Shown one piece after another: positions 11,880 to 61,778 of a stretch of 64,000 nucleotides of DNA (positions are counted from its first letter, which is position 1; every line of letters starts with the position of its first letter). Made by a program: the position numbers and the translations under genes. A model generated the notes under the pieces. The model had not been told where the DNA came from. It saw nothing but the letters and a program-made list of their open reading frames with translations, and did not search any database. The stretch is from a virus (Duplodnaviria; Heunggongvirae; Uroviricota; Caudoviricetes). Where the stretch lies: IMG/VR virus record IMGVR_UViG_3300017917_003366; one strand, given 5' to 3'.

Positions 11880-11880
11880 A

Positions 11881-31016: not shown

Positions 31017-31291
31017 TGGGATTGAAGAATTTTAAATTTGGTAGAGATAACTATACAAATGATTTTACACTAACCGATTTTAATCTACCCTTATTAAGAA
31101 TCGCACCCGCAGTTGTGTTTCAACAAACAGAATGGGTGTTTCAATTTGATGAGGGGGAGCCTGTGGTATTTGCTTCACAACAAGAAGAACCCAATCTAAC
31201 AATCACATTAAACAATACAAACCACGCATCAATAGAATTCACAGACAATAACAAAAAATTTAAAATATTCGCAAGGGAGAGACAACAATGA
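31016..31291 (+). CDS. Small protein (91 aa) beginning with NFKFGRDNYTNDFTL
   Basis: Shares the N-terminal FKFGRDN-x-NDF(S/T)L motif with the upstream ORF; the DNA differs by synonymous changes, indicating protein-level conservation. Confidence 0.4.
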   Translation: MGLKNFKFGRDNYTNDFTLTDFNLPLLRIAPAVVFQQTEWVFQFDEGEPVVFASQQEEPNLTITLNNTNHASIEFTDNNKKFKIFARERQQ

Positions 31292-39393: not shown

Positions 39394-39559
39394 CGATTCG
39401 TTTTAATAATTCTTCTTTTATTTCTTCCGCAGGTGTACCCTTATGGAATTGAAATGGTTTATTACATCTACATTTAAATTGTACATAATCGTCAACCAAT
39501 TCTTTATATTTTAATTCTAAAAATTCAATTCGTTCTTTTAACTGATTAATCTCTTCCAT
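39386..39559 (-). CDS. Small coiled-coil/CxC peptide (57 aa) between the halogenase and membrane genes
   Basis: ATG at 39559..39557 and TAA at 39388..39386. MEEINQLKERIEFLELKYKELVDDYVQFKCRCNKPFQFHKGTPAEEIKEELLKRIDD. Not in the track (shorter than 60 aa). Confidence 0.25.
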   Translation of the reverse strand: MEEINQLKERIEFLELKYKELVDDYVQFKCRCNKPFQFHKGTPAEEIKEELLKRIDD

Positions 39560-41081
39560 ATTTCTCCCTTAATTGTTCGTATAAGTTTGGTAATAGTTCG
39601 GTTAACAATTTCGTTTCGTATTTAATTAAATCTATTTTCTTTTCCATGTATGGTAGATAGTTTTCTTTGATTGAAACTCTTGGGGTTCTACCAAATGGAT
39701 TGTTGTAGAAGAATCCGGTTCCCCATAACCATTGGAACCAATTCACCGAACCAAAGATTCTACCTCTGAATAGTTCCTCCGCCGGTCTCACCGCCATAAT
39801 CTGTAACTTCTGCATCAAAGTATCAGGAATGAATGATTTGGTTTTACAATCCCTCCAAAACGGAGTATCATCTCTTTGACATGTTAGATAGTGAGCGTGA
39901 ATGAAATCACGAATGTCAATCATCATATCAATATTATCTCTATTGATTGTGTCGATTGTTTGAGATGTGTAGTTTAATTCATTCTTCTCAAGTTCAGTTG
40001 CCAATGTCGACATGATTCCTTGGAAGGTTGAGATTCCTGTTGATTCCATTGGTTCGGCGAATCCACCGGCCAATCCACATGCAACAACATTCTTAACGGC
40101 AACTCTTTCTCGAGTACCAACTCTCATGTTGATTTTTAACACATCACCTTCATACCCACCATGGAATTCTCTAAACTCTTTTTCCGCTTCTTCATCTGTA
40201 ATGTACTTAGATGAATAAACATAACCCGAACCGATTCTATCATAGATTGGTGTTTTCCATAACCAACCACTATTCATCGTATATAATCTACTGTACGGTT
40301 CCATTTCAGAATGTTTATCCTTATATGGAATTGGTGCAGCAATTGCTTTATCACAGAACAATGATTCCTCAAATGAAATGAATGGTTCACCCATCACCGC
40401 TTCAATTAATGCTCCTTTAAAACCAGAACAATCAATGTAAAGGTCTGCTTTAAATTTCTGTTGGTCCCATAATTTAATATCTTGAATGAAACCGAAGTCG
40501 TCGAGTTTAACTTGTTTCAAATCACCCTCAACAAACTTTACTCCATTAGGGATACAAACTTTCTTCTTGATTACTTCAGCGAATTTGACAGCATCAAAGT
40601 TGTAACTGTAAACGCTTTCAATATCACTATAGGTTGGGATGTAACTTAATTCATCATCAACGGTCGGTGATAGATTCTGAAGTGCTAAAGTTGGGGAAAG
40701 GAACAACTCATTTATTTTATGTGGGTCGTTCTCATGATATTTTAAAAGGTATTGTAGAAGATTTGTTTTCTGATTAATGTACAATGTTTGTTCGTTCTCC
40801 ACCAATACAAAGTGGTCACCTTTTTTTGACCAATTCATAAATCTTCCTCCGTATTTGTAAACTGCGGAAGATTCTTCCATCCAATCTTTTTCTTCCAAAC
40901 CAATAAACTTCATAAAGGAGTGAAGACTTGCGGTTGAACTTTCACCCACCCCAATGGTTCCAATTTTATTGGAATGGATTAATGTGATATCGAGTTTATC
41001 TTTAAATACTTTTGATAGTAATGCCGCGGTCATGATACCCGCGGTACCGCCACCGACGATTAATATTTTTTTAACTTCCAT
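39546..41081 (-). CDS. Flavin-dependent halogenase, tryptophan-halogenase family
   Basis: KILIVGGGTAGIMTAALLSK (GxGxxG FAD site). ITLIHSNKIGTIGVGESST. GWLWKTPIYDRIGSGYVYSSKYITDEEAEKEF (WxWxIP-like motif plus the GYVYSS block). ATG verified. Confidence 0.8.
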   Translation of the reverse strand: MEVKKILIVGGGTAGIMTAALLSKVFKDKLDITLIHSNKIGTIGVGESSTASLHSFMKFIGLEEKDWMEESSAVYKYGGRFMNWSKKGDHFVLVENEQTLYINQKTNLLQYLLKYHENDPHKINELFLSPTLALQNLSPTVDDELSYIPTYSDIESVYSYNFDAVKFAEVIKKKVCIPNGVKFVEGDLKQVKLDDFGFIQDIKLWDQQKFKADLYIDCSGFKGALIEAVMGEPFISFEESLFCDKAIAAPIPYKDKHSEMEPYSRLYTMNSGWLWKTPIYDRIGSGYVYSSKYITDEEAEKEFREFHGGYEGDVLKINMRVGTRERVAVKNVVACGLAGGFAEPMESTGISTFQGIMSTLATELEKNELNYTSQTIDTINRDNIDMMIDIRDFIHAHYLTCQRDDTPFWRDCKTKSFIPDTLMQKLQIMAVRPAEELFRGRIFGSVNWFQWLWGTGFFYNNPFGRTPRVSIKENYLPYMEKKIDLIKYETKLLTELLPNLYEQLREKYGRD

Positions 41082-45086: not shown

Positions 45087-46067
45087 TTAAATTGGACTCC
45101 ATATACCTGAAGCAGATGACAATGACCTTGGAGCATCTGCAATGGCAACTGCACTATCGGTATCGTAATAAACTTTATCGCTAAATGCGTTTTGATTTAA
45201 AATAGTTTGGTATCCACCTGCTAAGTAACCATGGTTTTGTCCCATAACTCCTGTGTTCTCACAGTTTGGTATGGACTGACTTCCATAATTCATTGTCCAA
45301 GTAGATATTATATTTCTATATTGACGTAAACTATTATCAATATGTGAACTTACACTTGTAAGGTAAAATTTACCTTTTTTACTGTTTACTCCCTTTTCGA
45401 GGGAATTGCCGGGTAATCCTAAACTACCAGGGGAATTTGTTGTTGGTTGGACTCTCCACGTTTCACTAGCAAATGGATATATTCTTGTTTGGTTCGCACC
45501 TGACTGATAATGATATCCATATTCTCTATCAAACCACCCAACTGAGTGGTCTGCGGTTCCAATATTTGCATCAGTTGTATTTGTGAACGTGTCGGTGGCA
45601 AAGGTTAAAATATCATAACCCGTGGAACCATTACCACAAGTATATGCTTTAGTTCCGAATGGAACACCTGTTGATTCATAACCAACTCCTTGTTGAATTG
45701 TTGATGGTGAACCCCCACAATAACCTCTGTTACCAATTGTGGTCATCACTTCTGTAGCCAAATTTATTTTATCATTTCCACAATACCCATTTTGATTATT
45801 TAGAAAATAATAACCGTGAGTATGGGCAGATGCCCAACCACCATATTTGTTTGGGTAACTTAAAGTACTTGAGCTTGTTCCCCAAGCGTCGGTGGCATAT
45901 TTTAATGTGGTTATTGCTGTCCAAACAGAACTTCCAATATAACCACCACCAATAAGTCCGCGAATTAGAATTAAACCAAGTTCATAATGGTCATCACGCA
46001 AGGTCTTTATGTCACGACCTTGTACTGTAAGATTTCCGGTGAAATTGATGTTACCATTAACTTTCAT
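45087..46067 (-). CDS. Putative receptor-binding/tail-fibre protein, paralog A (326 aa)
   Basis: MKVNGNINFTGNLTV... followed by about 6 blocks with GY..GG / TDxW periodicity. Ends NHGYLAGGY...YDTDSAVAIADAPRSLSSASGIWS. Confidence 0.5.
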   Translation of the reverse strand: MKVNGNINFTGNLTVQGRDIKTLRDDHYELGLILIRGLIGGGYIGSSVWTAITTLKYATDAWGTSSSTLSYPNKYGGWASAHTHGYYFLNNQNGYCGNDKINLATEVMTTIGNRGYCGGSPSTIQQGVGYESTGVPFGTKAYTCGNGSTGYDILTFATDTFTNTTDANIGTADHSVGWFDREYGYHYQSGANQTRIYPFASETWRVQPTTNSPGSLGLPGNSLEKGVNSKKGKFYLTSVSSHIDNSLRQYRNIISTWTMNYGSQSIPNCENTGVMGQNHGYLAGGYQTILNQNAFSDKVYYDTDSAVAIADAPRSLSSASGIWSPI

Positions 46068-49000
46068 TATTTATTTCCTTTGAGTTCGTCGATTTCCTTT
46101 TTAAGGTCTTTTATCGCTTCAATTAATAAAGCTGTTAATCTTCCATAAGATACGGAATCAGGACGACCTTCTGTATCGAATCCGACAGCTTCTGGTAAAA
46201 TTTTTGCCACTTCTTCCGCAATAACCCCCGCTTCTTTCTGTTCGTTATTAATTTTGGTATAGGTTACACCACTCAATTGAAGAACTTTCTCCAAACCATT
46301 TTCAATTTGAACGATATCTTTCTTGTATCGGATAGATGAGTTCTCGGTGATTCTACCGTTAACAACCAAGTTGTTATAGATTAATGCTCCTCCGAAGTAT
46401 AAGTGAGATGATGACGTACTTTGGTCACCGTAGAAGAAGAATTCGGCACCGTAGTTGATTCCATCTTCGGTTGGGTTGTTATCGGTAATCTGCATGTAAC
46501 AATCCATTGGTGTACCATCTTGTAAACCGAATATACTTGAAACGAACGCAGTTGCGTACATGTAATCGTAGTAAGGATTCACATACACACCACCTGTACC
46601 ATAAACAGAGTTACCTGAACCCCACAATACTTGGTATGTTGAGTTACTATCGTTGTTGTAGTTAATGGTTACTTGTGATGCAGAACCCGCACTAGTTGCG
46701 TAGTTTACAGATTGTGAACCAATGTTACTTGTAGTGATAGCACTTGATGCCGGCTGATAGTAAGAACCATGTTGACCATCTAATAAATCGGCATCAAGTC
46801 CAGAACTTGCACCGTCATTACCTGCGTGCCATACCGTGTTACCTCTAATGGTTACCGCTCCTGTTGAACCGTCAATTTTAAAGTCATTCTGACCGAATCT
46901 ACCCATTACAACAGTATAATCGGCAAATGCTTCGATAACGGGTAAACCTGAGATTGTGTTAACCGAGAAGATACTATCTGTCATATCATCGGTTACAGTA
47001 AACAATCTACCGTTCACACCATCAACCGCAACAACTTCTGCGTTTGCTCCACTACTATTGAATCTAACAGTACCTAAGTTTGAATAACCATTTGGATTTA
47101 AGTAATAGTTGGTATCACTAATATCATAAAATATTGGTGCCCTTACTGATTGGTCACTATTCCAACTGCCGTCATTTGCCGCCCAAGAACCCCAAGTGTT
47201 TGAACTGCTTAGGAAACCGATTCTACTACTATTACAATGGATACGACGAGTTGTTTCGTCGGTATCTGTCATGTAGATATCTGAAGATGTACCACTACCA
47301 ACAGTTAAAGCTCCAAATATCTGAACATTATAACTATTATCCATTCTTAAACCCCAGTTTCCACCTGAGTTTAAGAAACCAATTTGATTTGATGAGTTCG
47401 CATATACATAACCTCTTAATGCATTCACATGTCCACCGGTGTAGAATCTAATTGATGATTCGCTATTTGTTGATGAGACATCCCAAAATCCATTTGATTG
47501 GGATGATAAGTGCATCGTTGTGGTTTCATTGTATAAACCTGTATTGGAATTATCATTTCTAAACCATGCGGTGGTGTATGTATTTGAGAATCTAACAGTA
47601 CTTGATGTTGATACTCGTTGGTTTTCCAAAGGTTGGAATCGAGCATCTGATTCGGTTTCTGTAAAATACCTATCATCATGTGTATGTGATGATTCTGCAT
47701 ATTTTCCATCAATGTCAACTGTTACGGTGCCTCCATCATTACGTGTAAGTGTGATGATACCATTACTTGTATTAAATGATGCCGATGTTACATAATAGTT
47801 TGTATCGGTATATGATGTAATCCATCCAGGGTTTGTAGAAACACTACCATCAGCCATTAAGAACTGAGAAGAACTTCCTCCCGTCTTAACGAATGCAGTT
47901 GCTCTGATGTTACCCGTTACCGCTAACTTGTAACCTGAAACTGAAGTGTTACCCATTCCAATTTCACCGGTTGTTGCGATATAGAAATCGTTTTGATTGT
48001 AACGACCCATGATTACCCTGTAATCTGAGAACGCTTCAATTACAGGAACACCTGCAATTGTATTAACTGAGAATAAACTGTCACTTAAATCATCTGTGAT
48101 TGTGAACAATCTACCATTAACACCATCAACTGTGAATACTTCAGTTCCACTTGCGGTACTGTTTAATTTAACAGTTGCCAAGTTTGAGGTACTTGCCGGA
48201 TTTAAGAAGTATGTCGTATTGTCAAAATCATAGTAAGTTGAACCGTAGAATAATGGTGCCCCACTATTTCTTTCAATAATATTTGCCCAACCACTACCAG
48301 CACTATTTAATATTCTCCAGTTACCCGCATTTTGAATACCACCTGTACCAATTTCAAGTAAACTATCAATGTATACTTGTTTACTGTTATAGTTTCTAAT
48401 CCATGTAGTATCAGTCATGTACCATCCACCACCGTATGTTTCACTATACCAACCGGTATTCCCTGTACTTCTAAACCATCCTGATGAAACAAATGAACCC
48501 GCATATACATAATCTGAAGATGGATTCACGTAAACACCTGCGGTTCCGTAAACCGCGTTTCCTGAACCCCACAATAATTGATATGTTGAGTTACTATCGT
48601 TGTTGTAACTAATTGCCCCAAGATACGTTCCCGCTTCTTGGTATTTTCCATCAATATCTACCGTGTAAGTTCCTCCATCATTTCTTGAGAATGTGATAAT
48701 ACCATTGCTTGTATTAAATGATGCGCTCGTTGTATAATAGTTTGTATCAACATATGATGTAATATAACCATTCGGATTGGATGCGGGATAGTAATATGAA
48801 CCATGTTGACCGTCAAGTAAATCGGCATCAAGTGTTGACCCCGAACCTTGATGAGATATCTGTGCCGGATGGACCATACCAACACCTTCGGTTCCTTCAT
48901 TATCGGAGTCACTAAATGATAAACCTGTTAGATGGAATCTCCCAACCTGCACTGTGAATCTAATAGCAGTATAATCATCTAAACCAGATGCCACAAATGT

Positions 49001-52000
49001 GACAGTACTACCATCGTGGTTAACACCCTCGTCAGTATTTTCAACGGTTTGTCTTGTGTTTATTCTTCTCAAGAACACAAGTGCTCCTCCAGTTTGGATA
49101 CCATGTATATCAACATAACCACCACTACTCCAACATAATTGTGAAATCCATGCGGATTTCATTCCACTAGGTATATTAAATTGAATCCAAGCACCTGCAT
49201 CACCATATGTGTATGAATTAAATGCGGTATCGAATTTTGGATTACCCCATTCATCATTACTCGTCGCAGTAGTCCATGTTCCACTCGTTGATGCCGGTGA
49301 TGCCACATTAACTTCAGTTTGACCATTTACACTTTTGTAACGACCATCAATATCAACTGTTACCGTACCACCATCATTACGTGTAAGTGTGATGATACCA
49401 TTACCCGTATTAAATGATGCACTTGTAACGTAATAGTTAGTATCCACATATGAAGTAATCCAACCTGGATTTGTTGATACAGAACCATCAGCCATTAGGA
49501 ATTGTGATGAAGAACCACCACTCTTAACAAATGATGATGCAGTAACAGATGATGAGAATATACCGGTACCTGTAGTATCAAACGTAATTGGGGTTGCACC
49601 CGCACCGAACATTCTAACACCACCACCACTTGAGTATTGTAATTCTACATAACCACTACTTCTATTGATTTGTGCTAAATTAAATGTGATATATCCGTCG
49701 TTGAATCCACCACTAAACGTAACCGCAGTAGATGTAGAAGCACCTCTTGCCGTTACTGTCGCCAATGTATCCGTTTCAGAATATGATGTTAAGAATGAAG
49801 ATGCGTGATATCCATCAAGGGTGTCAGCATCCAATCCACTTCCACTACCATCATTATTTGAGTGCCATACTGTTCCGCCATTGATTGTTGCGGTTCCAAT
49901 ATGTGCAAATGAACCACTTGTTAATAATGAACCACTAACAGTAGTTGTTGTACCACTAACTACAAGTGAATTCATACCAAATGAACCCATCACAACTCTA
50001 TCGTCAGAGAACACCTCTAATACAGGTAAACCTGAGATATCGTTAACTGAGAACAACGAACCTGATAATGTATCGGTTACTGAGAACAATTGTCCAAGTG
50101 AACCTTGTACATCAAATACTAAACTACCTGAACCATAAACTTGTAATGGAACTGACGGTGATGTTGTATCTGATTCACCATAACCAACTCTAACACCTCT
50201 CGCAACAGTTAAGTAACCGTTGGTTGTAAGTGACATCGCACCTTGTGATGTGTTATGTCCATCATCTCCCCACCAGAAACCTCTGTCATCGTCGTTGTTC
50301 ATTTGGAAGGTCATCGCCCAATCGGCAAGTCCACCGAAATTGTTTCCGGATTCCATACCGATAGCATATGTTCCACTATTACTATAAACGTTATACTTGT
50401 TTCTTGTTGAGGAAGCATTCGTTCCGTAAACACCCGTTGCAGTTACATTATTAAATGTTGGGCTGTCAGTTGTACCTAAGTTTTGGTTAATCGTATATGA
50501 AGTAATGTTACTTGCATTACCACTAATATTTCCTGTAATCTTTGAACCAGCAAGTGCCGTAATCCATGCGGGATTTGAATATGTTCCTGTTGTATAAACT
50601 CCATCAGTTACCGTTGCGGCGTTTCCTGAGATATTAATACCCCAAGTACCGTTTTCATAAAGATATTTGTAACCTGAACCATTTTTAAAGAAACCATCGG
50701 TTGCGATATATGCCCTTAAATTACCTGATTGTGTAAACCAAATTGGTTCATCACTATCGTCCTGTGTACCAATTTCTAAATAAGATAATCCCGCTCCGTT
50801 ACCTGTAGATACAAATCTAATAAATGCGGCATCGGTATTCATTCCCCAGAACACACCTAAACCTGAAGTTGTACCAAAGGTTAAATTACCTGTCATGGTG
50901 TCACCACTCTTAGAAACTTTGTTTCCAATTGATGTGGTAATTGTTGTTGCGAAGTTTGCATCGTCACCAAGCGCCGCCGCCAACTCATTAAGAGTATCTA
51001 ACGCCGCGGGAGCACTATCAATTAAGTTGGTAATCTGTGTTTGAACATAACCTGTGGTCGCATAACCTTGACCACTGTGATTACCCCATCCAAATGCGGT
51101 GTCCCAGTTAGTTTTGTTATATCCTGTAATTGCTGTAGAACCACCGAAGAAGTTACCAATTTCAGTTTCTGTATAATATCTTGTATCAGTTGTAGTTGAA
51201 TAGTTGTTTGTATTCAAATACTCATATTGTGTTGTGTCTCCACCACCATAAATTGGTCCTGTTGTAATTATACCACCTTGAGGTGCTTGGTCCAAATCAA
51301 CTTGTGCTGGAACTTCAGTTAAAGCGGGGAAATTATTAATATCACCCGGGTCAACACCATCAGCAACCCAATCCTTAATAACCCAACCTTGGTTTTGGAT
51401 ATTTTCTAACATCCAAGCTTGAACTTGACATGATGAGTCGTCAATATAAACCTGTAGTAAAGCACCATCATATGTTGAACCATCGACAATACGAAGAGTT
51501 CTAAATGGATTACCACTATATCTTGAGTTAATTAATACGGTAATATCAGAGTAGTTACCATAGTGATGTGTTGCATAGAACACAACCGATTGGTGATTAC
51601 CACTTGATGTGTCTCTTAATATAAATCTACCAACCGCTCTGTTACCGGGATTAGCAGCAATTGTGTACCAACCAGCGGCTCTGTTAACATCGGATGTTTT
51701 TGCGTATGGTAGATATCTATCATCGTGTGTATGAACGGATTCAGCATATTTTCCATCAATATCAACTGTGTACGTATTCCCATCGTTACGAGAGAATGTG
51801 ATTACACCGTTTGATGTATTAAATGTTGCACCTGTGGTATAGTAATTTAAATAAGAACTAATGTAACCACTTGGGTTAGATGATGGATAATAAGAAGTTG
51901 TATCAACAGTTAATGTACCATCAGAACTACTTGTTTTTAAGAAACCATTCGATGTATAACCATTTAATGTGATTACTCTACTTGGTGAAACTTGCATCCA

Positions 52001-55000
52001 AGTTGATAGCGAAGTTGATGAACCGTTTGATATTCCAAAATAGAAGTTACTTCCATTATGTCCCATCGACCAATTATGGTTAGTTCCCGCATTACCACCA
52101 ATACCGGTTGTAACACCCCAACCACCATCACCAATACCACCCGCAACAACTCTATTTGAAAATGAGTTTGGATTTATACCTGTACTGTTCGCAAGAATTG
52201 CATTTGAATTATTGGTTAATCCTGTTGTTGTTAATCCTCCATTAAATGATACCGCAGTGGTTGTACTTGCACCTCTCGAGGTTACTGTGGCCAACGTATC
52301 GGTTTCGGAATATGATTCTAAGTATCTACCATCTAAATCAACGGTGTATGTTCCACCATCATTTCTTGTAAATGTAACAACACCATTTCCGATATTGAAT
52401 GTTGCACCTGTTGTAAAGTTGTTAGTGTCAGTAACGGTTTCAGTTGCCGTAGTGATACCTGTGATATGTCCAAATGAATCAAGAAGGATGTCTTGAATGT
52501 AAGTTCTTCCGGAGTTATTTGATGAACTTGCAGCACTTACCGAAGGGTGCGCAGTTAAATAAGTGTTACTATCTAATGTACCGTCACCTTTAACAAACTG
52601 AGAGGATGATGCACCTTGAGTGATGAATGATGCGGCAGTTATTGGTAGGGAGGTTATACCATTTCTAGAAACAACATCTTCTAAAGTATCCACTTCAGTA
52701 TATGATGTTAAGAATCTTCCATCAATATCTACCGTAAATGTACCGCCACCATTATTATTGGTGAACGTAATAACACCATTACTTGTATTAAATGTTGCAC
52801 CCGTTGTAAACGTATCTGTTACAGTTTCAGTTGCCGTAGTTATACCAGTAATGTGACCGAATGAATCAAGAAGAATATCTTGGATATACGTTCTACCACT
52901 ATTGTTAGAAGAACTTGCGGCACTCACTGAAGGGTGAGCGGTTAAGTATCTACCTTCTAAACTTATGTCAATATTTCCACCGTCGTTTCTTGTTAATCTT
53001 AGATTACCCGTGCCGGTATTAAACGTTCCACCTGTTACATAGTAATTCGTGTTATCTAAGAAAGCAGATAAATCAATATCACCACTAAAGGCACCACCTG
53101 TACCTGTGAATCTTAATGTTGTTCCAAGTAAAACGACATTATTAATAAAATCGTTTGTGTCAACAACTGTTTCAGTTGCTGTAGTTATTCCTGTAATGTG
53201 TCCAAAACCATCTAAAAGAATGTCTTGAATGTAAGTTCTGCCTGAGTTGTTTGATGAACTTGCAGCAGTCACAGAAGGGTGTGCGGTTAAGTATCCACTA
53301 TCGTTGGTAAACATCGAAATGTTACCTGTTACATTCTGTAAAACTCTACCGTTAGATAAAACTAATGTTCCCCCAACATAAAGTGCTGAGTTAACAAGGT
53401 CGAACTCGGTACCTCCTCTAATAATAAGTGGGTACTTATCAAATGCCGGTCCTTGATAATCATCGACATGGAAAACGAATCTATCGTTTGTTGTTGCGTT
53501 ATCTCTTAATTGGAAAACAAAATCAATACTATCTGAAGATGGTTGAATTGCGTAAATTCTAGCACCGTCATTATTTAATGTCCAATCGAAACCTTTACCA
53601 CTTGTTGGGAATGTTCCTGCTAAGTCAACGAAAGTTAAATCGGCAGCATTACCTAACGTAACATTTCCATTAAATGTTACAGGAGTTGCGGTTGATGCGC
53701 CTCTTGCAGTAACGGTTGCTAATGTATCTGTTTCACTAAATGATGTCAGGTAAGTGTTACTATCTAATGTACCATCACCTTTAACAAACTGAGAAGATGT
53801 TCCACCTGAAGTTATGAACTTAGGTGCTGTTAAGTTACCCGTCATCGTGTCACCACTCTTAGAAACTTTGTTTCCAATTGCAGTTGCGATTGTTGTCGCA
53901 AAGTTCGGGTCATCACCAAGTGCCGCCGCCAACTCATTTAATGTGTCAAGAGTTGTTGGTGCAGAATCCACCAAGTTCGCAATCTGAGTAGAAACATAAC
54001 CTGAAATACTTGCGGTATATGTACCACCATCACTCTTAGTGAATGTGATTAAACCTGTTGTACTATTTGTTGTACCACCGGTTGTATATGTGTCAACAAC
54101 GGTTTCGGTTGCTGTTGTAATTCCTGTAATATGACCAAAACTATCTAATAAGATATCTTGGATGTATGTACGTCCACTATTGTTCGACGAACTTGCCGCA
54201 GATACCGATGGGTGAGCAGTTAAATAACGACCCTCCAAATCAACATCTATTGTTCCTCCATCGTTACGAGTTAAACGTAGATTACCCGTACCGGTATTAA
54301 ACGTACCACCTGTTACATAGTAATCGGTAGATGATGTTCCGTATCTACCATCCAAATCAACGGTATATGTTAATCCGTTATTCTTTGTAAAGGTTAAAAC
54401 ACCATCACCTGTATTGAAGGTAACACCCGTAGTGTGTGTATCCACAACAGTTTCTGTTGCGGTTGTTATTCCCGTGATGTGACCGAAAACGTCAAGTAAA
54501 ATATCTTGGATGTATGTTCTTCCACTATTGTTCGAAGAAGACGCCGCAGATATTGTTTGGTGTAAACTATCAAATACCACAGTATTGGTACCCGGCATTA
54601 ACGTTATGTTCATGTTACCACCTTCTTGAAGTGTAACTGTTTCATTAAAGTTAATGTCTTCAGATGTTGTACCGTCGGTTAATCTCCAAGAACCATTTAA
54701 TGCAGTTGCGATAGAACTACTAACAGCACTGTATCCTGTTGTCCCTGTGATATTAATTTGGGCAGAACCCGAAACTAATGACGGAGCATTTTGAATATAT
54801 GAGTAATCAATTGAACCACTGATTCCGCTTGTTACTTTTAACGAACCAGTGATTTCGGTGTTACTGATTATTTTTACTTTACTACCATCATCATAGATGT
54901 TAGAGTTGTCCAAGTGGTCACCCCCAACAGATTTAGGTATTCTTGTACTTGTTAAACCCAATTCATCACCAAGAGAACCTGTGTTTCTTGGACCCGAAAG

Positions 55001-56188
55001 TAACATACCGCCCGAGTACATACTACCCGATGCGTTTTGATAAATCCAGTGATTATTTAATGAATCCCATAAAAGAGATGCGGTTGCTAAATGTGAGTTT
55101 GAACCCGAATCGAATACCACTAAACCACCAAATCTTTCAATTGGTTCAAATACGTTTGTATAAATGAATGGACCTGTTAAGTTTAGGTTTGATGATGTAA
55201 CATACACAAATGATGAGGTACCAAGTACACTAATGTTTTGTGTAATTGTAATCGAACCACTGATAATCTGATTACCATTGATTGTTTGTGAACCTGAGAT
55301 ATCTAATGAACCTGTTAATTGGTATGAACCCGAAAGTGATTTTGTATTTGCCCAAACACTTCCACTTCTCATTAATAAATCACCATGTGATAAACTTCCT
55401 GTGTCGATTCTAACATTATGGAGTTCGTCGATTTCGTAACCGTTATCGACCTTAACAAAAATGGACCCGACGTTTGCATGCGCTCTAACAACATAACCAA
55501 TAATAACGGTGTGTTGGGGCGCTTGTGGTTTTATGTTTGTAATCCTCCCCGCAACTGTCGGCGATAGGTATAACATATCACCATCATTCCACAATTCTCC
55601 TTGTAACGCACCGGTGGTATTGATGTTTCTTACCAATCCATTTGCGGTGATAAACCCTTCTTGGTTATCATCTATATTTTCGGTGGCAAGACCTAAAGTT
55701 TCCGCCGAGTTGTCGTCATTATCGGCTTGTGCTAATTTTACCTTTATTCTATTTCCTTGTGCCCCAAATATTTTAACCGCATTATATGTAGATTCGAGTA
55801 AATTAACACCTGATTTGTTTACCACCCTTACTAATTGTTCTTGTCCAACTTGAAGGGTTACGTTTCCACCTTTCATCCCGATATCGACAGTTCCGTCGGT
55901 ATCGTTCCATGTCATTCTACCAATACCACCGACAACTGTTGAACCTGTATTAAAATCAATATAATCTGTGCGCAGAACACCTGTTAGTGAACCACTAATA
56001 GAACCGGTAACGTTTAAACTACCCGTTACTGTATGAGTATCAGTTATTTGGTCACCAACTTTAGCGTTCCCATGAACAGTTAATGAACCCGTTACGGTTT
56101 GAGAACCACTTACGGTGACTCCACCTTTAAAATTGGATGAACCCGATACTTGTAACGACCCCGTTACGTCTGCGTCAAATATTCTCAT
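46067..56188 (-). CDS. Giant tail-fibre/tail-spike-like structural protein (3373 aa) with internal tandem domain repeats and a C-terminal intramolecular-chaperone (peptidase S74) domain
   Basis: N-terminal Gly/Ser/Thr-rich beta-helix-like repeats (VTGSLQVSGSSNFKGGVTVSGSQTVTGSLTV). Five near-identical about 40-aa units (LTAHPSVSAASSSNNSGRTYIQDILLDSFGHITGITTATETV). Many copies of TGATFNTSNGVITFTRNDGGTYTVDIDG(R/K)Y. The C-terminal roughly 120 aa match the Peptidase_S74 auto-cleaving chaperone consensus and end in a coiled coil (full aligned motif in the finding at 46067-56188). ATG verified at 56188. Confidence 0.8.
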   Translation of the reverse strand: MRIFDADVTGSLQVSGSSNFKGGVTVSGSQTVTGSLTVHGNAKVGDQITDTHTVTGSLNVTGSISGSLTGVLRTDYIDFNTGSTVVGGIGRMTWNDTDGTVDIGMKGGNVTLQVGQEQLVRVVNKSGVNLLESTYNAVKIFGAQGNRIKVKLAQADNDDNSAETLGLATENIDDNQEGFITANGLVRNINTTGALQGELWNDGDMLYLSPTVAGRITNIKPQAPQHTVIIGYVVRAHANVGSIFVKVDNGYEIDELHNVRIDTGSLSHGDLLMRSGSVWANTKSLSGSYQLTGSLDISGSQTINGNQIISGSITITQNISVLGTSSFVYVTSSNLNLTGPFIYTNVFEPIERFGGLVVFDSGSNSHLATASLLWDSLNNHWIYQNASGSMYSGGMLLSGPRNTGSLGDELGLTSTRIPKSVGGDHLDNSNIYDDGSKVKIISNTEITGSLKVTSGISGSIDYSYIQNAPSLVSGSAQINITGTTGYSAVSSSIATALNGSWRLTDGTTSEDINFNETVTLQEGGNMNITLMPGTNTVVFDSLHQTISAASSSNNSGRTYIQDILLDVFGHITGITTATETVVDTHTTGVTFNTGDGVLTFTKNNGLTYTVDLDGRYGTSSTDYYVTGGTFNTGTGNLRLTRNDGGTIDVDLEGRYLTAHPSVSAASSSNNSGRTYIQDILLDSFGHITGITTATETVVDTYTTGGTTNSTTGLITFTKSDGGTYTASISGYVSTQIANLVDSAPTTLDTLNELAAALGDDPNFATTIATAIGNKVSKSGDTMTGNLTAPKFITSGGTSSQFVKGDGTLDSNTYLTSFSETDTLATVTARGASTATPVTFNGNVTLGNAADLTFVDLAGTFPTSGKGFDWTLNNDGARIYAIQPSSDSIDFVFQLRDNATTNDRFVFHVDDYQGPAFDKYPLIIRGGTEFDLVNSALYVGGTLVLSNGRVLQNVTGNISMFTNDSGYLTAHPSVTAASSSNNSGRTYIQDILLDGFGHITGITTATETVVDTNDFINNVVLLGTTLRFTGTGGAFSGDIDLSAFLDNTNYYVTGGTFNTGTGNLRLTRNDGGNIDISLEGRYLTAHPSVSAASSSNNSGRTYIQDILLDSFGHITGITTATETVTDTFTTGATFNTSNGVITFTNNNGGGTFTVDIDGRFLTSYTEVDTLEDVVSRNGITSLPITAASFITQGASSSQFVKGDGTLDSNTYLTAHPSVSAASSSNNSGRTYIQDILLDSFGHITGITTATETVTDTNNFTTGATFNIGNGVVTFTRNDGGTYTVDLDGRYLESYSETDTLATVTSRGASTTTAVSFNGGLTTTGLTNNSNAILANSTGINPNSFSNRVVAGGIGDGGWGVTTGIGGNAGTNHNWSMGHNGSNFYFGISNGSSTSLSTWMQVSPSRVITLNGYTSNGFLKTSSSDGTLTVDTTSYYPSSNPSGYISSYLNYYTTGATFNTSNGVITFSRNDGNTYTVDIDGKYAESVHTHDDRYLPYAKTSDVNRAAGWYTIAANPGNRAVGRFILRDTSSGNHQSVVFYATHHYGNYSDITVLINSRYSGNPFRTLRIVDGSTYDGALLQVYIDDSSCQVQAWMLENIQNQGWVIKDWVADGVDPGDINNFPALTEVPAQVDLDQAPQGGIITTGPIYGGGDTTQYEYLNTNNYSTTTDTRYYTETEIGNFFGGSTAITGYNKTNWDTAFGWGNHSGQGYATTGYVQTQITNLIDSAPAALDTLNELAAALGDDANFATTITTSIGNKVSKSGDTMTGNLTFGTTSGLGVFWGMNTDAAFIRFVSTGNGAGLSYLEIGTQDDSDEPIWFTQSGNLRAYIATDGFFKNGSGYKYLYENGTWGINISGNAATVTDGVYTTGTYSNPAWITALAGSKITGNISGNASNITSYTINQNLGTTDSPTFNNVTATGVYGTNASSTRNKYNVYSNSGTYAIGMESGNNFGGLADWAMTFQMNNDDDRGFWWGDDGHNTSQGAMSLTTNGYLTVARGVRVGYGESDTTSPSVPLQVYGSGSLVFDVQGSLGQLFSVTDTLSGSLFSVNDISGLPVLEVFSDDRVVMGSFGMNSLVVSGTTTTVSGSLLTSGSFAHIGTATINGGTVWHSNNDGSGSGLDADTLDGYHASSFLTSYSETDTLATVTARGASTSTAVTFSGGFNDGYITFNLAQINRSSGYVELQYSSGGGVRMFGAGATPITFDTTGTGIFSSSVTASSFVKSGGSSSQFLMADGSVSTNPGWITSYVDTNYYVTSASFNTGNGIITLTRNDGGTVTVDIDGRYKSVNGQTEVNVASPASTSGTWTTATSNDEWGNPKFDTAFNSYTYGDAGAWIQFNIPSGMKSAWISQLCWSSGGYVDIHGIQTGGALVFLRRINTRQTVENTDEGVNHDGSTVTFVASGLDDYTAIRFTVQVGRFHLTGLSFSDSDNEGTEGVGMVHPAQISHQGSGSTLDADLLDGQHGSYYYPASNPNGYITSYVDTNYYTTSASFNTSNGIITFSRNDGGTYTVDIDGKYQEAGTYLGAISYNNDSNSTYQLLWGSGNAVYGTAGVYVNPSSDYVYAGSFVSSGWFRSTGNTGWYSETYGGGWYMTDTTWIRNYNSKQVYIDSLLEIGTGGIQNAGNWRILNSAGSGWANIIERNSGAPLFYGSTYYDFDNTTYFLNPASTSNLATVKLNSTASGTEVFTVDGVNGRLFTITDDLSDSLFSVNTIAGVPVIEAFSDYRVIMGRYNQNDFYIATTGEIGMGNTSVSGYKLAVTGNIRATAFVKTGGSSSQFLMADGSVSTNPGWITSYTDTNYYVTSASFNTSNGIITLTRNDGGTVTVDIDGKYAESSHTHDDRYFTETESDARFQPLENQRVSTSSTVRFSNTYTTAWFRNDNSNTGLYNETTTMHLSSQSNGFWDVSSTNSESSIRFYTGGHVNALRGYVYANSSNQIGFLNSGGNWGLRMDNSYNVQIFGALTVGSGTSSDIYMTDTDETTRRIHCNSSRIGFLSSSNTWGSWAANDGSWNSDQSVRAPIFYDISDTNYYLNPNGYSNLGTVRFNSSGANAEVVAVDGVNGRLFTVTDDMTDSIFSVNTISGLPVIEAFADYTVVMGRFGQNDFKIDGSTGAVTIRGNTVWHAGNDGASSGLDADLLDGQHGSYYQPASSAITTSNIGSQSVNYATSAGSASQVTINYNNDSNSTYQVLWGSGNSVYGTGGVYVNPYYDYMYATAFVSSIFGLQDGTPMDCYMQITDNNPTEDGINYGAEFFFYGDQSTSSSHLYFGGALIYNNLVVNGRITENSSIRYKKDIVQIENGLEKVLQLSGVTYTKINNEQKEAGVIAEEVAKILPEAVGFDTEGRPDSVSYGRLTALLIEAIKDLKKEIDELKGNK
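47704..49545 (-). repeat. Pair of long near-identical coding repeats (about 200 nt) at 47704-47899 and 49344-49545, plus diverged copies of the same about 30-aa motif elsewhere in the gene
   Basis: Both encode ...FVK(S/T)GGSSSQFLMADGSVSTNPGWITSY(V/T)DTNYYVTSASFNT(G/S)NGIITLTRNDGGTVTVDIDG(R/K)Y with about 90% nucleotide identity. Confidence 0.65.
52425..54565 (-). repeat. Five near-identical coding repeats (about 120 nt core, period about 340-390 nt) within the giant fibre gene
   Basis: Plus-strand cores near 52425-52560, 52830-52945, 53170-53290, 54090-54215 and 54455-54565 all encode ...SAASSSNNSGRTYIQDILLD(S/G/V)FGHITGITTATETV. Confidence 0.7.
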
Positions 56189-56283
56189 GTAAAGTTCTTA
56201 TTATTTTTATAGATAAATACTTCAAAACCCCAATCTTTATTCCTTTAAAAGTTATTTATTGATAGTATATTCTATAAATATGT

Positions 56284-56736
56284 ATGATACGACACACACT
56301 GGTCAAAGATGACCTAATTCATATCGAAAATTCTGAGGTTTTTGTAAAAGAAATTTTTGAGGTTACAAATTGTGATATTCAAACCACAATCGACAACTTT
56401 AATTCACTTTACGAGTGGGATAAAATGTTCAATGTGGAAGAAACGGCAAGAAGATTTGAGGAAAACCACCGTTTTTTTATTTTTTATCACAAAGATTTGG
56501 TGGTTGGACATTGTTGGGTTGACCCCGTATCAATGAATGAATCTAATATATATGTATATAATGTTTTTGTTGACAAAACAAAACATGATAAGGATGTGTG
56601 TGATAGCACCGTTTATTTCTCTAAACTTGCCACGATGTTATTTTCTGAAGGTTATAAGGTAATCCACGCAGATGTGGATGATTGGCACAAAAAATCCCAA
56701 TCCTTTTGTCAAAGATTGGGATTCAAATCTATTTAG
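56284..56736 (+). CDS. Plus-strand hypothetical protein (150 aa), possibly GNAT-like acetyltransferase
   Basis: Lone plus-strand gene between the fibre gene start and a convergent gene. The C-terminal ...DDWHKKSQSFCQRLGFKSI resembles the GNAT C-terminal helix. Weak. Confidence 0.3.
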   Translation: MIRHTLVKDDLIHIENSEVFVKEIFEVTNCDIQTTIDNFNSLYEWDKMFNVEETARRFEENHRFFIFYHKDLVVGHCWVDPVSMNESNIYVYNVFVDKTKHDKDVCDSTVYFSKLATMLFSEGYKVIHADVDDWHKKSQSFCQRLGFKSI

Positions 56737-56890: not shown

Positions 56891-58540
56891 TTAAGTATTT
56901 TTAGAATTATTACAAAATGGACATGGTTCACCGCCAGAAAAAACTGGATTAGGGTTTTCGGGGTCATATGGTTCAGAAATACAACAAACCACCTCATTAC
57001 AATAAGGTGCACCTAAACCCAAACCATAACACTCCTCCGCATTAAATCCTGTATATAAATCGGGAAAATCACAAGGTATATCACATCTCCAATACATCAT
57101 GTATCCAGGATACCAACATCTACATACCGGTGCATTGTGTTGGATAATAAAATAATTTGGTGATTGTGTAGACTCGTCCATGGTTAAATATAAATCGATG
57201 TCCTCTACGTCAATCGAATATACATTTTCTCTTGAATACGTGTAGTGTTCAGAAACAACCGCAGATGTTTCAAAAAGATTTGTATTCTTATTTACTATTA
57301 CAAATTCGTCACCTAATTCTACTTTGGAGAATGGAACAAATATTAATATTTCATTTCGTTTTATTAAAACTAATGAGGTATCAACATCAGAAAATTTTAA
57401 ACCATTTTCTAATGTGAGGTATCTAATCCATACGGATGCGTTGATTGTTACAATTGATTGTATGGTTGTTGACGAAATTGTACTAGCGGAAAAAACTTCT
57501 TCTGTATTTCCTGAATATTGTAATGGCTCAAACTCACTTTCATTGTCAGGTAGACCAAACAATTTAATTGTTTTTAAAGAATCATTCAATGATAACTGTG
57601 ATGGCGAAACTAATGTCCCATCATTTTTGAGGATTAAATTAGTACTATCGGAATTGTATTCAATACCATCGTATCTTTTACCATATTTCTGCAAATATTT
57701 CGGTCTTTCCCATACTTGTATTTCGGTATTGATAGTATCAACAGTATTATCAATACTACATGAATTGGTGTGGATAAACGGGTCAATTAAATTAATAACA
57801 TTTAATTCACTACCATAAACTAAACCAATACTTCTATATGTTTTTAATTTACCATTTTCCAAATCATTAGTGTTTATCACATATTCTTGTAATAATGTAT
57901 TTGGGGGTAAATTAGTTTTTAAATCACTTAACTGCTCCTGAGTTTCTATCTTATAAACTTTTGGGTATTCAGAGTAATCTGTGGTTGGATATCGTTGTTT
58001 AACAATATAATTTGGGTAATTACCGTTATCTTTCAAACTGTCCCCAATCATATCAAATCCAAATGTTGAATGATTTATGTACGTTTTAACAATTGAATTT
58101 GGGGAAGAATCATATAAAAGTTTTAGAAATTCAAAATTATCTTTAGCATATGTTTCATCAATCAATGCCGTGGAGTCATATGATTGTCTTATAATTAATT
58201 TATTTGGGGAATCTACTGTTGATGGTGTTACTTGGTTCTTACTGTCCACTACTTGTTTTGTAATTGTTAAACCACTGTAGTATTTGTCGAACATTGCCCC
58301 AATACCCTTTATTGTATCATTGGGGTAGTCACTATTAATTGCATAAACCGGTCCCGCATTTAATAATATTAACTCTATTTCGGTGATATTATTTTCAGAT
58401 ATTAGATTATCTAATTCAGTTTTATTAAAATATGGTTCAATTGATATGGGGGCTGCGACGATTCCTGTGTTTATTTCTAAAACTTTAAAGGAATTATCGA
58501 CATCCTTAACAAAATCAATTGCTATTAAAACACTTCTCAT
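56891..58540 (-). CDS. Hypothetical protein (549 aa) with a Cys-rich C-terminal module
   Basis: C-terminal ...CRCWYPGYMMYWRCDIPCDFPDLYTGFNAEECYGLGLGAPYCNEVVCCISEPYDPENPNPVFSGGEPCPFCNN (12 Cys in about 75 aa). N-terminal VLIAIDFVKDVDNSFKVLEINTG resembles the C-terminal subdomain motif of ATP-grasp enzymes. ATGA-coupled to the upstream Cys-rich gene. Confidence 0.5.
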   Translation of the reverse strand: MRSVLIAIDFVKDVDNSFKVLEINTGIVAAPISIEPYFNKTELDNLISENNITEIELILLNAGPVYAINSDYPNDTIKGIGAMFDKYYSGLTITKQVVDSKNQVTPSTVDSPNKLIIRQSYDSTALIDETYAKDNFEFLKLLYDSSPNSIVKTYINHSTFGFDMIGDSLKDNGNYPNYIVKQRYPTTDYSEYPKVYKIETQEQLSDLKTNLPPNTLLQEYVINTNDLENGKLKTYRSIGLVYGSELNVINLIDPFIHTNSCSIDNTVDTINTEIQVWERPKYLQKYGKRYDGIEYNSDSTNLILKNDGTLVSPSQLSLNDSLKTIKLFGLPDNESEFEPLQYSGNTEEVFSASTISSTTIQSIVTINASVWIRYLTLENGLKFSDVDTSLVLIKRNEILIFVPFSKVELGDEFVIVNKNTNLFETSAVVSEHYTYSRENVYSIDVEDIDLYLTMDESTQSPNYFIIQHNAPVCRCWYPGYMMYWRCDIPCDFPDLYTGFNAEECYGLGLGAPYCNEVVCCISEPYDPENPNPVFSGGEPCPFCNNSKNT

Positions 58541-58971: not shown

Positions 58972-60642
58972 TCATACCTTTCTTATTAAATAGTTCCCCA
59001 TGACAAGTATATCCATTTCCGTATCTAAAAATGTGTCCATAGCATCTTGTGGGGTCAATACCATAGTTTTATCCTTGACATTGAAGGATGTGTTTAAAAG
59101 GATTGGGTATCCACTATAATTCTCATACTCCTTCAATAACCTATAGATTGGATTGAAGGGGGTTACAGATTGGATTCTTGCCGTTCCATCAACGTGGGTG
59201 ATTGATGGTAGTTTATCTCTGTATTTTTCTTTAACCTTAACAACCTGATTCATATATGGTACAAATCCACTGTATTCAAAATACTTCTTTTGGTCCTCAA
59301 AGGTTACCATCGGAGCAAAGGGTCTGAATCCTTCTCTCTTCTTAATTACCTTATTGATTTTGTCCTTCATATTGGGTAATGTTGGGTTGGCAAGTATTGA
59401 CCGATTACCCAAAGCCCTTGCTCCGAACTCTATATTACCTTGAAACCACCCAACGACCTTACCTGACATGATTTCTTCTGAAACTCTTCTGTTTAAATTG
59501 GTGGTAAGTTGATATTTCCTGAAGTTGATTCCGGTTGTTTTATTTAAAACTTTAAGAATGTCGACTTCAGTATAATCGGGACCAAGAAATGCATCCGTGT
59601 GAATTCTAATTGGTCGTTTTTTTGTGTGAAAGTAATTTAAACACGTACCGATACAAGAACCCGCATCTGATGGCGCTGGTGGAATCCATAATCTTTTGAA
59701 ATCGGTATTATCTAAAATCTTACCATTAGCAGTACCGTTATAAGCACAACCACCACCCAACGCAAGATTGGTTGAATCGGTAAACAATTGAATATCTCTT
59801 AATACCTCAAACAGTATTGATTCGTATTTCTCTTGAACCGTTGCAGCAATGTCCATATGGTCCTGAGTTATTGGTTCTTCGGGTAATCTGTTTTCAATTC
59901 CCATTAATTCAATCAATTCCTCATTAAACATCAAGCAATCCCTATCCCATGAGAAATAAACCATGTTGGTTTTAAGTGATGCACAATTATGTGCAATCAG
60001 TTGGTTAATCTTATCACGATATTTTTCAGGGTTACCGTAAGGTGCCAATCCCATTAATTTGTATTCACCTTCGTTTGGTTTAAAACCAATAAACGATGTC
60101 ATTGCCGAATAGAATAAACCTACCGAGTGTGGGTAAACACATAATGGAACAATTTTAAATTCACCCTTATTAATGTACCCAACTGACATTGTTTCCCATT
60201 CACCAACACCATCTACTGATAAAATAACCGCATCATTAAATGGGGAAGAATAATATGAATAGAATATGTGCGAATCGTGATGATTCGAAAAGAAAACGTT
60301 ATCTGATATTTTTTTTAATTCTCTCCTTAATTTCCAATGATTAATTTTTGTTTTGATGAAGTTTTTTGACACTTCAACAGGACACTCTAAGAAATTTTTA
60401 AAGAATGTATTATTAACTCTATCGGATTTTAATTGTGGATTTTCATAGAAACAAACCGATTCAATTTCGTTTCTTTTGATATGATACTTGTCAAAAATGT
60501 ATTTTAATGCATTGACCGGAAATCTATTATCATGTTTTATACCTGTGAATTTTTCTTCTTCGCAAGCAAAAACCAATTGACCCTTCTTGAAGAGACAAAC
60601 TGATGAGTCATGATAATATGCTGATATTCCAATTACGTACAT
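58972..60642 (-). CDS. Carbamoyltransferase, NodU/CmcH (TobZ-like) family
   Basis: N-terminal MYVIGISAYYHDSSVCLFKKGQLVFACEEEKFTGIKHDNRFP matches the family signature (ILGIS..YHDSAAAL...AAQEERFSR.KHD). The length (556 aa) is typical. Confidence 0.8.
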   Translation of the reverse strand: MYVIGISAYYHDSSVCLFKKGQLVFACEEEKFTGIKHDNRFPVNALKYIFDKYHIKRNEIESVCFYENPQLKSDRVNNTFFKNFLECPVEVSKNFIKTKINHWKLRRELKKISDNVFFSNHHDSHIFYSYYSSPFNDAVILSVDGVGEWETMSVGYINKGEFKIVPLCVYPHSVGLFYSAMTSFIGFKPNEGEYKLMGLAPYGNPEKYRDKINQLIAHNCASLKTNMVYFSWDRDCLMFNEELIELMGIENRLPEEPITQDHMDIAATVQEKYESILFEVLRDIQLFTDSTNLALGGGCAYNGTANGKILDNTDFKRLWIPPAPSDAGSCIGTCLNYFHTKKRPIRIHTDAFLGPDYTEVDILKVLNKTTGINFRKYQLTTNLNRRVSEEIMSGKVVGWFQGNIEFGARALGNRSILANPTLPNMKDKINKVIKKREGFRPFAPMVTFEDQKKYFEYSGFVPYMNQVVKVKEKYRDKLPSITHVDGTARIQSVTPFNPIYRLLKEYENYSGYPILLNTSFNVKDKTMVLTPQDAMDTFLDTEMDILVMGNYLIRKV

Positions 60643-61778
60643 TATTTCTTTGAACCATAGTAGATTGTGTCTTTATTAATTCTTTCTCTCCAAGGGTCCA
60701 AAACCACACTTCCACTCGGGAAGATAGTATCATTAAAAACATTTCTATGTCCTAATAAATAAATAGCAGGACCATTTATTTCATCGTACCTAACCTCATT
60801 AATGAAACTACCTATAAGAATGGAATAAGAACCATCAATATATTCGACACCGGGTTTATAGCTCTTACCCATAATAACCACAGATAAACCATGTTCAATA
60901 GATAAATCAATTAATCGATTGGCAATGTTTCTTGCTTGTTTTTCCCTTGATGTCATAATCGCATCAAATAAATCATAACCCAAGCCCAATCTTTGTGCCA
61001 TATATCTCAATGCAATATTATCACGTGGGTGACAAGAACCTCCGTCTCCCATCCCCGCTTTCATATAAGCCGGTCCCATGATTCTATATGTACTTCTTTC
61101 AAGTGCACCGGTCACCACATCAGTATTCATATTTCCATTTAATTCAGCCACATCTTGAATCATATTGACAATTGAAATCTTTGCCGATATAAATGTGTTG
61201 TAGAATATTTTAATCGCCTCAGCATCATCCCATGTACCGATTTCATATCTTGTTTGTGGTGATATAATTGTTTGATAGAAATCCTTTAAGATTTTAGCGT
61301 CAGTTGTTTCTGAACCATCTTCTGTACCAATAATCACCATCTCAGGATTAACCATATCGTTTTTAACGGTACCCATCGCAATTAGATATGGATTATAGAT
61401 GAACCTATAGTTTTCAACCAACGGAATAAACTCCCTACGAGTAGTACCAGGTAAAACTGTGGATATTAAAACAACTAGCTGTTGCTTGTTAGTATATTGA
61501 TTGATTTCTGAAAGTATGTTTTTAACTATACTGTAATCAAAATCCTTTGGTGGTAGATGTGATGTTGGTTGTTTACCGTCATATAATGGGTCGTGGGGAG
61601 TAGGTACAGCAATAAAGATTAAATCTTTATCCTTACACACTTCCTCAATTGTACTCACCATATTAAAATTACCTGGCGTAACATTATTCACATCATAACC
61701 TTCAACAAAATGTTTTTCTGCCATGACCTCGGAAACCTCTTTACCAAGTTTTCCAACACCAATAAATCCTATTTTCAT
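60642..61778 (-). CDS. Nucleotide-sugar dehydrogenase (UDP-glucose/GDP-mannose dehydrogenase family)
   Basis: N-terminal Rossmann MKIGFIGVGKLG and catalytic-Cys motif GMGDGGSCHPRDNIAL (family GxGGxCxPKD). Confidence 0.7.
   Translation of the reverse strand: MKIGFIGVGKLGKEVSEVMAEKHFVEGYDVNNVTPGNFNMVSTIEEVCKDKDLIFIAVPTPHDPLYDGKQPTSHLPPKDFDYSIVKNILSEINQYTNKQQLVVLISTVLPGTTRREFIPLVENYRFIYNPYLIAMGTVKNDMVNPEMVIIGTEDGSETTDAKILKDFYQTIISPQTRYEIGTWDDAEAIKIFYNTFISAKISIVNMIQDVAELNGNMNTDVVTGALERSTYRIMGPAYMKAGMGDGGSCHPRDNIALRYMAQRLGLGYDLFDAIMTSREKQARNIANRLIDLSIEHGLSVVIMGKSYKPGVEYIDGSYSILIGSFINEVRYDEINGPAIYLLGHRNVFNDTIFPSGSVVLDPWRERINKDTIYYGSKK

Follow-up and report, generated by a model that had tools for sequence, protein, structure and literature searches.

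How is a fibre of more than three thousand residues built, folded and diversified when a single gene encodes all of it? The question is raised by a 64,000-nt stretch of DNA from an uncultured tailed phage (Caudoviricetes, IMG/VR record IMGVR_UViG_3300017917_003366; 'the window' below means this whole stretch), in which one ATG-initiated, uninterrupted open reading frame (ORF) on the minus strand encodes a protein of 3373 aa (Table 1). An earlier note, made from the letters of the sequence alone, had described a single 10.1-kb ORF for a tail-fibre protein with a C-terminal S74 chaperone domain and near-identical tandem repeats; the ORF and the chaperone are borne out, the account of the repeats largely is not. 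As we show here, the ORF is a genuine fibre gene of an uncultured aquatic phage, and its product, though very large, belongs to a known class of phage fibres, those that mature by means of an S74 intramolecular chaperone. We consider it likely that this product forms a giant homotrimeric virion fibre serving as the host-adhesion organelle of a large phage, possibly one infecting Bacteroidota. Since fibres determine which hosts a phage can catch, the gene and its relatives show, in a case provided by nature, how an adhesin of such length is put together and varied.

The C-terminal chaperone and its predicted cleavage site

The Pfam model PF13884 matches aa 3284-3335 with an E-value of 7.2e-13 and 49.1 bits against a cutoff of 22, and Peptidase_S74 is the sole Pfam match to the giant protein. 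The domain makes up the last 90 of the 3373 aa and follows the fibre modules of what would be a trimeric chain. In a phmmer search, the last 200 aa match 6f45_A, the chaperone end of S16 gp37, with an E-value of 1.3e-8 over the C-terminal 140 aa; this is the best sequence match among solved structures. The alignment places ENSSIRYKKDI of the fibre over VSSDRRIKKDI of S16 gp37, so that SSIRYK stands against SDRRIK, and in the fibre a serine at the very start of the domain is followed five residues downstream by a lysine (S3284-S-I-R-Y-K3289, i.e. Ser-x4-Lys). In the T5 fibre protein pb1, cleavage falls between Thr1263 and Ser1264, the serine being activated by Lys1269 (PMC4690869); the spacing of Ser1264 and Lys1269 is that of Ser3284 and Lys3289. 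By analogy with pb1 cleavage and its lysine-activated serine, we infer that the Asn3283|Ser3284 bond is cut, which would release a 90-aa, 10-kDa fragment. The self-cleavage at a conserved serine that had been predicted earlier is thus supported both by the S16 gp37 alignment and by the pb1-like spacing of the dyad. In T5, sensor residues in the triple-beta region ahead of the cut (Arg1250 and Asp1239) link cleavage to folding; for the corresponding stretch of the window fibre there is no solved homologue to which it can be aligned. The calculated mass is 357.5 kDa for the full chain and 347.6 kDa for the predicted mature chain of 3283 aa.

Other parts of the protein also carry the marks of a fibre. 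Sixteen PHROG families match it, most of them annotated as 'tail fibre', each spanning only a module of 50-110 aa; these matches fall at aa 706-827, 1708-1768 and 3257-3370. With a G+C content of 0.39, the gene is slightly richer than the window (about 0.35).

Dispersed, recoded modules and the exchange of blocks between relatives

The long central part contains six kinds of short modules (A-F), with A present five times, B ten times and C-F in two to four copies each. Searches with regular expressions and hidden Markov models (HMMs) found exactly five copies of the A unit, a 40-aa stretch (about 45 aa in full) at aa 547, 663, 974, 1089 and 1218, with the consensus [ST]HPxISAASSxNNSGRTYIQDILLDxxGHITGIxTATETV and invariant His4, Thr19, Asp27, Gly30 and His31. 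While the five copies are 92-100% identical as protein, their DNA is only 67-83% identical and their synonymous differences (pS) amount to 0.46-0.94; copies 4 and 5 are 100% identical in protein and just 78% in DNA. The B unit (about 30 aa) lies at aa 587, 626, 703, 1052, 1129, 1260, 1452, 2255, 2487 and 2801 and is more loosely conserved, at 37-93% protein identity. The first C module matches PDB entry 9d93, 'tail collar fibers gp4', with an E-value of 3e-11.

The earlier description of the repeats stood in part: there are indeed five copies of the 40-aa unit, and the 30-aa motif reaches ten. They are not tandem, since Tandem Repeats Finder at a minimum score of 30 reported 0 arrays in the gene and the copies are dispersed and interspersed over 6.8 kb. 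Nor does the DNA contain repeats of about 200 nt at about 90% identity. The best self-comparisons give 190 nt at 82%, 317 nt at 74% and, at 90%, a single run of 68 nt. No exact match extends beyond 34 nt, and identity between copies ranges from 67 to 84%, the maximum over at least 90 nt being 84%. Where two copies encode the same residue, their codons show a nucleotide identity of 0.775, compared with 0.770 expected from independent draws from the gene's own codon usage. Because synonymous identity equals that of random codon draws, the A copies are not recent duplicates. The repeats are instead ancient modules, held near-invariant by selection on the protein, and poor substrates for slippage. 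It is striking that such ultra-conserved short modules can be identical as protein with their DNA fully recoded.

Of 238 other environmental fibre proteins that were fetched, 72 contain the A unit, in 1-10 copies; it recurs as well in 1260 representatives of a 1.84-billion-protein library, and no Pfam model covers either A or B. When the A-unit profile was compared with the PDB, the marginal matches were to the subtilisin-like CylA (E = 0.005) and to an HtrA-type 'LLDSxGHxIGxNTA' strand (E = 0.015); with only ~20-38 residues aligned, we judged both to be due to chance or convergence. The part of the unit concerned is 'NSG...LLDSFGHITGITTA' (e.g. at 52805-52942), whose similarity to the catalytic-serine strand of HtrA/Deg proteases and to the histidine motif of a subtilisin is weak. 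The two invariant histidines and one invariant aspartate of each A unit could instead line a metal site in a trimer.

A metagenome scan with the C-terminal 400 aa of the fibre recovered four other lineages. Their fibres measure 3580 aa (L085, freshwater, 99.95% identical to the sister-sample contig L084 over 11.6 kb), 3712 aa (L087, freshwater, stitched with L086, to which it is 100% identical over 7.7 kb) and 3703 aa (L089, marine); the fourth lineage consists of window-like fragments (L001, L002). The first ~810 aa keep the same order in all lineages, and beyond this point the unit counts vary (A 4-7, B 9-10, D 4-6, E 3-4). Aligned with L085, the DNA of the gene falls into blocks of 79-98% identity with offset jumps of +846, -798, +174, +90, -189, +153 and +363 nt; despite these block differences, the downstream genes are colinear at about 90%. 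In L089, a different C-terminal cassette (...NGKKYRMTLEEI) stands in place of S74. Fibre length and architecture thus differ between lineages by replacement of blocks and cassettes, not by steps in copy number, and whole blocks, even the C-terminal folding cassette, are exchanged between lineages.

Alternative C-termini are seen elsewhere as well: L089 (about 11500-11956) as well as P0245, P0246 and P0247 end in ...LGWRNIYTNDLHLSN...NGKKYRxTLEEI, which is not an S74 chaperone, and another group of giant fibres ends in ...RSGRxVVxG. The L002 contig (1488-4238, aligned with window 53241-56188) has a 44-nt deletion in its N-terminal cassette and a 155-nt deletion at gene nt 2133-2287; both are out of frame and the gene is called as three ORFs, which points to a true pseudogene or else to a chimeric assembly.

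How do these comparisons bear on the proposal that homologous recombination and replication slippage, driven by internal repeats that are nearly identical, leave repeat number hypervariable within populations? The lengths do differ among related phages, as had been anticipated, and so do the counts of A and D; moreover, L002 is a close relative with two deletions, and several related contigs end inside the gene. It is the mechanism that fails. Near-random synonymous sites and dispersed copies remove the basis of the slippage argument, since there is neither a tandem array nor near-identical DNA on which slippage could act. The sister contigs, over 11.6 and 7.7 kb, do not contain a single indel, the differences between lineages are block replacements with non-homologous content, and the L002 deletions, being out of frame, may be assembly errors. 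We therefore regard slippage as a highly improbable source of the diversity.

Equally, the ORF might be an assembly artefact, a chimera of repeats from co-occurring strains or a collapse across them. Related strains do occur together in the same sample types, L002 gives the impression of being chimeric or frameshifted in part, and some window-specific stretches (e.g. aa 1170-1258 and 2150-2248) have no DNA-level cover in any relative. However, the reading frame is intact over 10.1 kb, no repeat exceeds the 34 nt given above and could confuse a k-mer assembler, long colinear blocks are common to four independent lineages with flanks colinear at ~90%, and other metagenomes carry intact genes of the same design encoding 3.2-3.9 thousand residues. 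Given this, we attach almost no probability to an artefact. The giant size is recurrent in metagenomes: an exhaustive metagenome protein search returned 26 proteins that carry the same units and reach at least 2000 aa. Of these, 15 have 3.0-3.9 thousand residues, and several alternative N- and C-terminal cassettes occur among them. In one freshwater contig (Ga0315909_10000458, 54 kb; L093 1354-11734), the same module set is divided between two neighbouring fibre genes, one of 1802 and the other of 1661 aa, and the C-termini of both resemble long-tail-fibre distal subunits.

The proximal end of the fibre and its genomic surroundings

The first 68 aa are 69% identical in the giant relative P0246, which lacks the domain that comes next in the window protein, and 30-40% identical in other giant families starting with MNIFDPHITGSL. 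Compared with PHROG, this segment gave weak matches only, to families of unknown function, and matched no known tail or baseplate docking domain. Because it is conserved where the next domain is missing, we infer that it is the likeliest virion-attachment end.

For that next domain we relied on an AlphaFold2 monomer model of aa 1-300, built from a 60-sequence alignment. An all-beta domain at aa ~120-290 has a predicted local distance difference test (pLDDT) score above 90, and the predicted fold of aa ~115-290 is that of trimeric capsid cement/decoration proteins. The N-terminal region had been described as a Gly/Ser/Thr repeat; the first ~70 aa do carry a 'TGSLxVxG' repeat, but residues ~115-290 are confidently predicted to be globular, so the region is not fibrous repeat alone. 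Pfam Phage_cement_2 (PF09956) does not match aa 1-300 of the window protein even at E-values up to 10, whereas two of 60 homologues (P0044 and P0063) pass this model; the part of them that does so shows 44% identity to window aa 115-295. When PDB sequences were searched with a profile of the N-terminal family, none matched. A fold search of BFVD returned only unannotated proteins of uncultured phages, and a scan of IMG/VR with the N-terminus found no relative above 66% identity in the best matching segment. The domain family nevertheless has more than 3341 members, mostly of 300-900 aa, and no Pfam model; describing the A and B units together with this cassette and its more than 3000 homologues would improve the annotation of aquatic phage genomes.

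Homologous genes bearing the domain are always head- or neck-proximal and never lie in a baseplate module. In the Acinetobacter phage phiAC-1 the gene directly follows those for protease and capsid, in DC31 and CRP-6 those for terminase and portal precede it, in a group of ~34-kb podophages it follows a P22 gp10-like tail hub gene, and in T4-like contigs it lies between gp23/gp13 and the sheath gene. This raises the possibility of a head (capsid) or neck fibre instead of a tail fibre, in which the cement-fold domain would dock as a trimer on the capsid, like the base of phi29 gp8.5, and the remaining ~3000 aa would project as a 'hair' that captures hosts. The capsid, portal and sheath contexts favour such a fibre, as do the two homologues that pass Phage_cement_2, and the 55-69% identity of the domain across different morphotypes is more easily explained by a universal binding partner. 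A more specific version would have the cement fold clamp the capsid lattice, with a Ser/Thr-rich shaft of 3000 aa glycosylated by the phage's flanking cluster of sugar enzymes (glycosyltransferases, carbamoyltransferase, UDP-glucose dehydrogenase and acetyltransferase); if true, S74-matured head fibres would be a class of their own, widespread in aquatic phages and so far uncharacterised.

Several findings speak for a dispensable, exchangeable domain rather than an anchor. In P0246 (3631 aa), the first 68 aa and the shaft that comes next are retained and aa ~69-280 are cleanly missing. L002, which is ~99-100% identical to the window elsewhere, has its cassette at aa ~87-287 replaced by a ~78%-identical version. 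Furthermore, the start of the domain lies past aa 150 in 26 of 125 homologues, some of which carry it at the C-terminus. As the domain is absent in one relative, swapped in another and variably placed in homologues, we argue that it is not the anchor and treat it as an optional, exchangeable proximal knob. Together with the podophage gene that follows a tail hub gene and with the negative Phage_cement_2 and PDB searches for the window protein, this makes a head or neck fibre unlikely, and we give the glycosylated capsid 'hair' little credence.

Preferring a virion fibre attached through its first 68 aa, we note the points that weigh against it. AlphaFold2 confidence is low for aa 1-110. Within the window, 40 neighbouring ORFs were scanned and none matched a capsid, tail or baseplate family; the fibre instead neighbours genes for sugar modification and nucleotide metabolism. 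If modules were the units of exchange, breakpoints should cluster at their edges, and 7 of 14 lie within 10 aa of one, compared with 32% expected (P about 0.13, not significant). Searches with megablast against phage records and with tblastn found no full-length homologue in any cultured phage, so that incorporation into virions is a prediction; megablast gave no match, and tblastn matched annotated tail fibres at module level only, covering at most 14% of each protein half. A literature search likewise found no described fibre gene of comparable size, and a scan of a genome collection returned one remote match, in a metagenome-assembled genome (MAG) of Bacteroidota. For the identity proposed earlier, the PHROG tail-fibre families on several modules back a virion fibre, while 'tail' is putative in a window that has no tail or baseplate gene. 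The gene contexts of L089 and L093 were checked for tail or capsid neighbours and were uninformative.

Table 1. Features of the giant fibre and its downstream genes, in window coordinates (all on the minus strand)
Feature	Residues	Position	Basis
Giant fibre gene	3373 aa	46067..56188	ORF list and translation; colinear relatives in independent metagenome contigs
Conserved N-terminal segment (MRIFDADVTGSL..., TGSLxVxG repeats)	1-68	55985..56188	Conserved in P0246 and other giant families
Globular all-beta domain, predicted capsid cement/decoration fold	~115-290	55319..55846	Predicted structure
A unit, copy 1	541-586	54431..54568	Regular expression and HMM
A unit, copy 2	657-702	54083..54220	Regular expression and HMM
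A unit, copy 3	968-1013	53150..53287	Regular expression and HMM
A unit, copy 4	1083-1128	52805..52942	Regular expression and HMM
A unit, copy 5	1212-1257	52418..52555	Regular expression and HMM
Span of 10 dispersed B units (TGATFNTSNGVITFTRNDGGTYTVDIDGRY-like)		47693..54430	Regular expression and HMM
C module, copy 1 (DSAPxxLDTLNELAAALGDD fibre motif)	731-792	53813..53998	PHROG tail-fibre families; PDB 9d93
C module, copy 2	1714-1775	50864..51049	PHROG tail-fibre families
E module, copy 1 (VDGxxGxLFxVTDD...)	2007-2086	49931..50170	Module common to the tail fibre of Flavobacterium phage immuto
E module, copy 2	2667-2746	47951..48190	Module map
E module, copy 3	3035-3114	46847..47086	Module map
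Peptidase_S74 intramolecular chaperone	3284-3373	46070..46339	Pfam PF13884; phmmer to 6f45_A; PHROG long-tail-fibre distal C-termini
Predicted scissile site Asn3283 / Ser3284 with Lys3289 (NSSIRYK)	3283-3289	46322..46342	Translation; S16 alignment; T5 pb1 dyad spacing
Three paralogous downstream genes	326, 347 and 528 aa	42528..46067	Co-oriented; first start overlaps fibre stop (TAATG)

The three downstream paralogues are 32-43% identical to one another and rich in Gly, Tyr and Trp; Pfam gave no match to any of them, and their sole family match is phrog_1417, of unknown function. The trio is kept downstream of the fibre in L084, L085 and L086, and may encode fibre-associated proteins. The genes flanking the fibre include an acetyltransferase-like gene, a carbamoyltransferase, a UDP-glucose dehydrogenase, a tryptophan-halogenase-like gene, a block of glycosyltransferases, a thymidylate synthase, a DNA methyltransferase and a tRNA nucleotidyltransferase. 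The cluster modifying sugars and small molecules lies at 28178-35713 (+), 39546-41081 (-), 56284-56736 (+) and 58972-61778 (-) and includes three glycosyltransferases; glycosyltransferases, together with a DegT aminotransferase, likewise adjoin P0113 (locus L169), a shorter S74 fibre that shares the N-terminal domain. Glycosylation of the Ser/Thr-rich fibre is a possibility. A 549-aa ORF at 56891-58540 (-), upstream of the fibre operon, matches no family and has a Cys-rich tail (CRCWYPGYMMYWRCDIPC...CCISEP...CPFCNN), with a homologue at the same place in L001.

As to the host, the only DNA match of the window to a cultured phage is a 148-nt stretch of its thymidylate synthase gene (24793-24940), which matches Flavobacterium phage immuto. 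Upstream of the fibre ATG (56189-56258, -; ...AAAAATAATAAGAACTTTAC), the one start inspected, there is no Shine-Dalgarno-like sequence. The missing Shine-Dalgarno, the immuto match and the single Bacteroidota MAG match fit a Bacteroidota-type host.

Proposed architecture and comparison with known systems

We propose the following architecture. The conserved N-terminal segment of ~68 aa would anchor the fibre on the particle and be followed by the optional knob with the capsid-cement fold. Next would come a shaft of ~3000 aa, in which the strongly conserved short modules A-F are interspersed with globular domains particular to each lineage, probably for binding structures on the host surface. 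The last 90 aa, the S74 chaperone, would nucleate trimer folding from the C-terminus and then cut itself off at Asn3283|Ser3284, with Ser3284 activated by Lys3289. By the scaling of the T4 long tail fibre, the mature chain of 3283 aa would be roughly 180-190 nm long. Related phages would diversify by replacing entire blocks and cassettes among one another, and not through slippage of internal repeats.

Parts of this design are familiar from other fibres. The C modules match the 'tail fibre repeat' (DTLNELAxALG) of the P2 gpH, Mu and P1 S-type tail fibres and of collar fibres (PDB 9d93 gp4), with only this module of ~60 aa in common. In phi29 gp8.5, a fibre follows the domain, as it does in the window protein. 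Unlike in gp8.5 and the trimeric cement proteins (Phage_cement_2; HFTV1, Adjutor gp16 and Pam3 cement), the window domain is preceded by the conserved 68-aa segment; it also differs from the cement proteins in being absent from P0246 and exchangeable, in matching no Pfam model and in having no capsid gene nearby.

The fibre gp37 of S16 and the T-even phages (PDB 6f45) provides the closest match of known structure. Tetart et al. reportedly described the T-even gp37 genes in 1998 as mosaics in which conserved motifs separate swappable segments. In the window, a single polypeptide would do the work of the multi-protein fibre (gp34-37); its motifs, the A-F units, are different, and the link between block edges and motifs is not significant here.

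Finally, the maturation scheme brings the protein close to the T5 L-shaped tail fibre pb1 (1396 aa) and the K1F endosialidase. The window protein is 2.4-3 times longer than these, shares no sequence similarity with them outside the chaperone and has an unrelated domain at the tip before the cleavage site, which in the window is only predicted; its chaperone has 90 aa, compared with 133 aa in pb1. In all three, however, S74 stands at the very end of a trimeric (in the window, predicted) beta-rich fibre, pb1 and the window fibre have the same Ser-x4-Lys dyad at the start of the domain, and release of a small chaperone fragment, as in the pb1/K1F endosialidase class, is likewise predicted for the window fibre.

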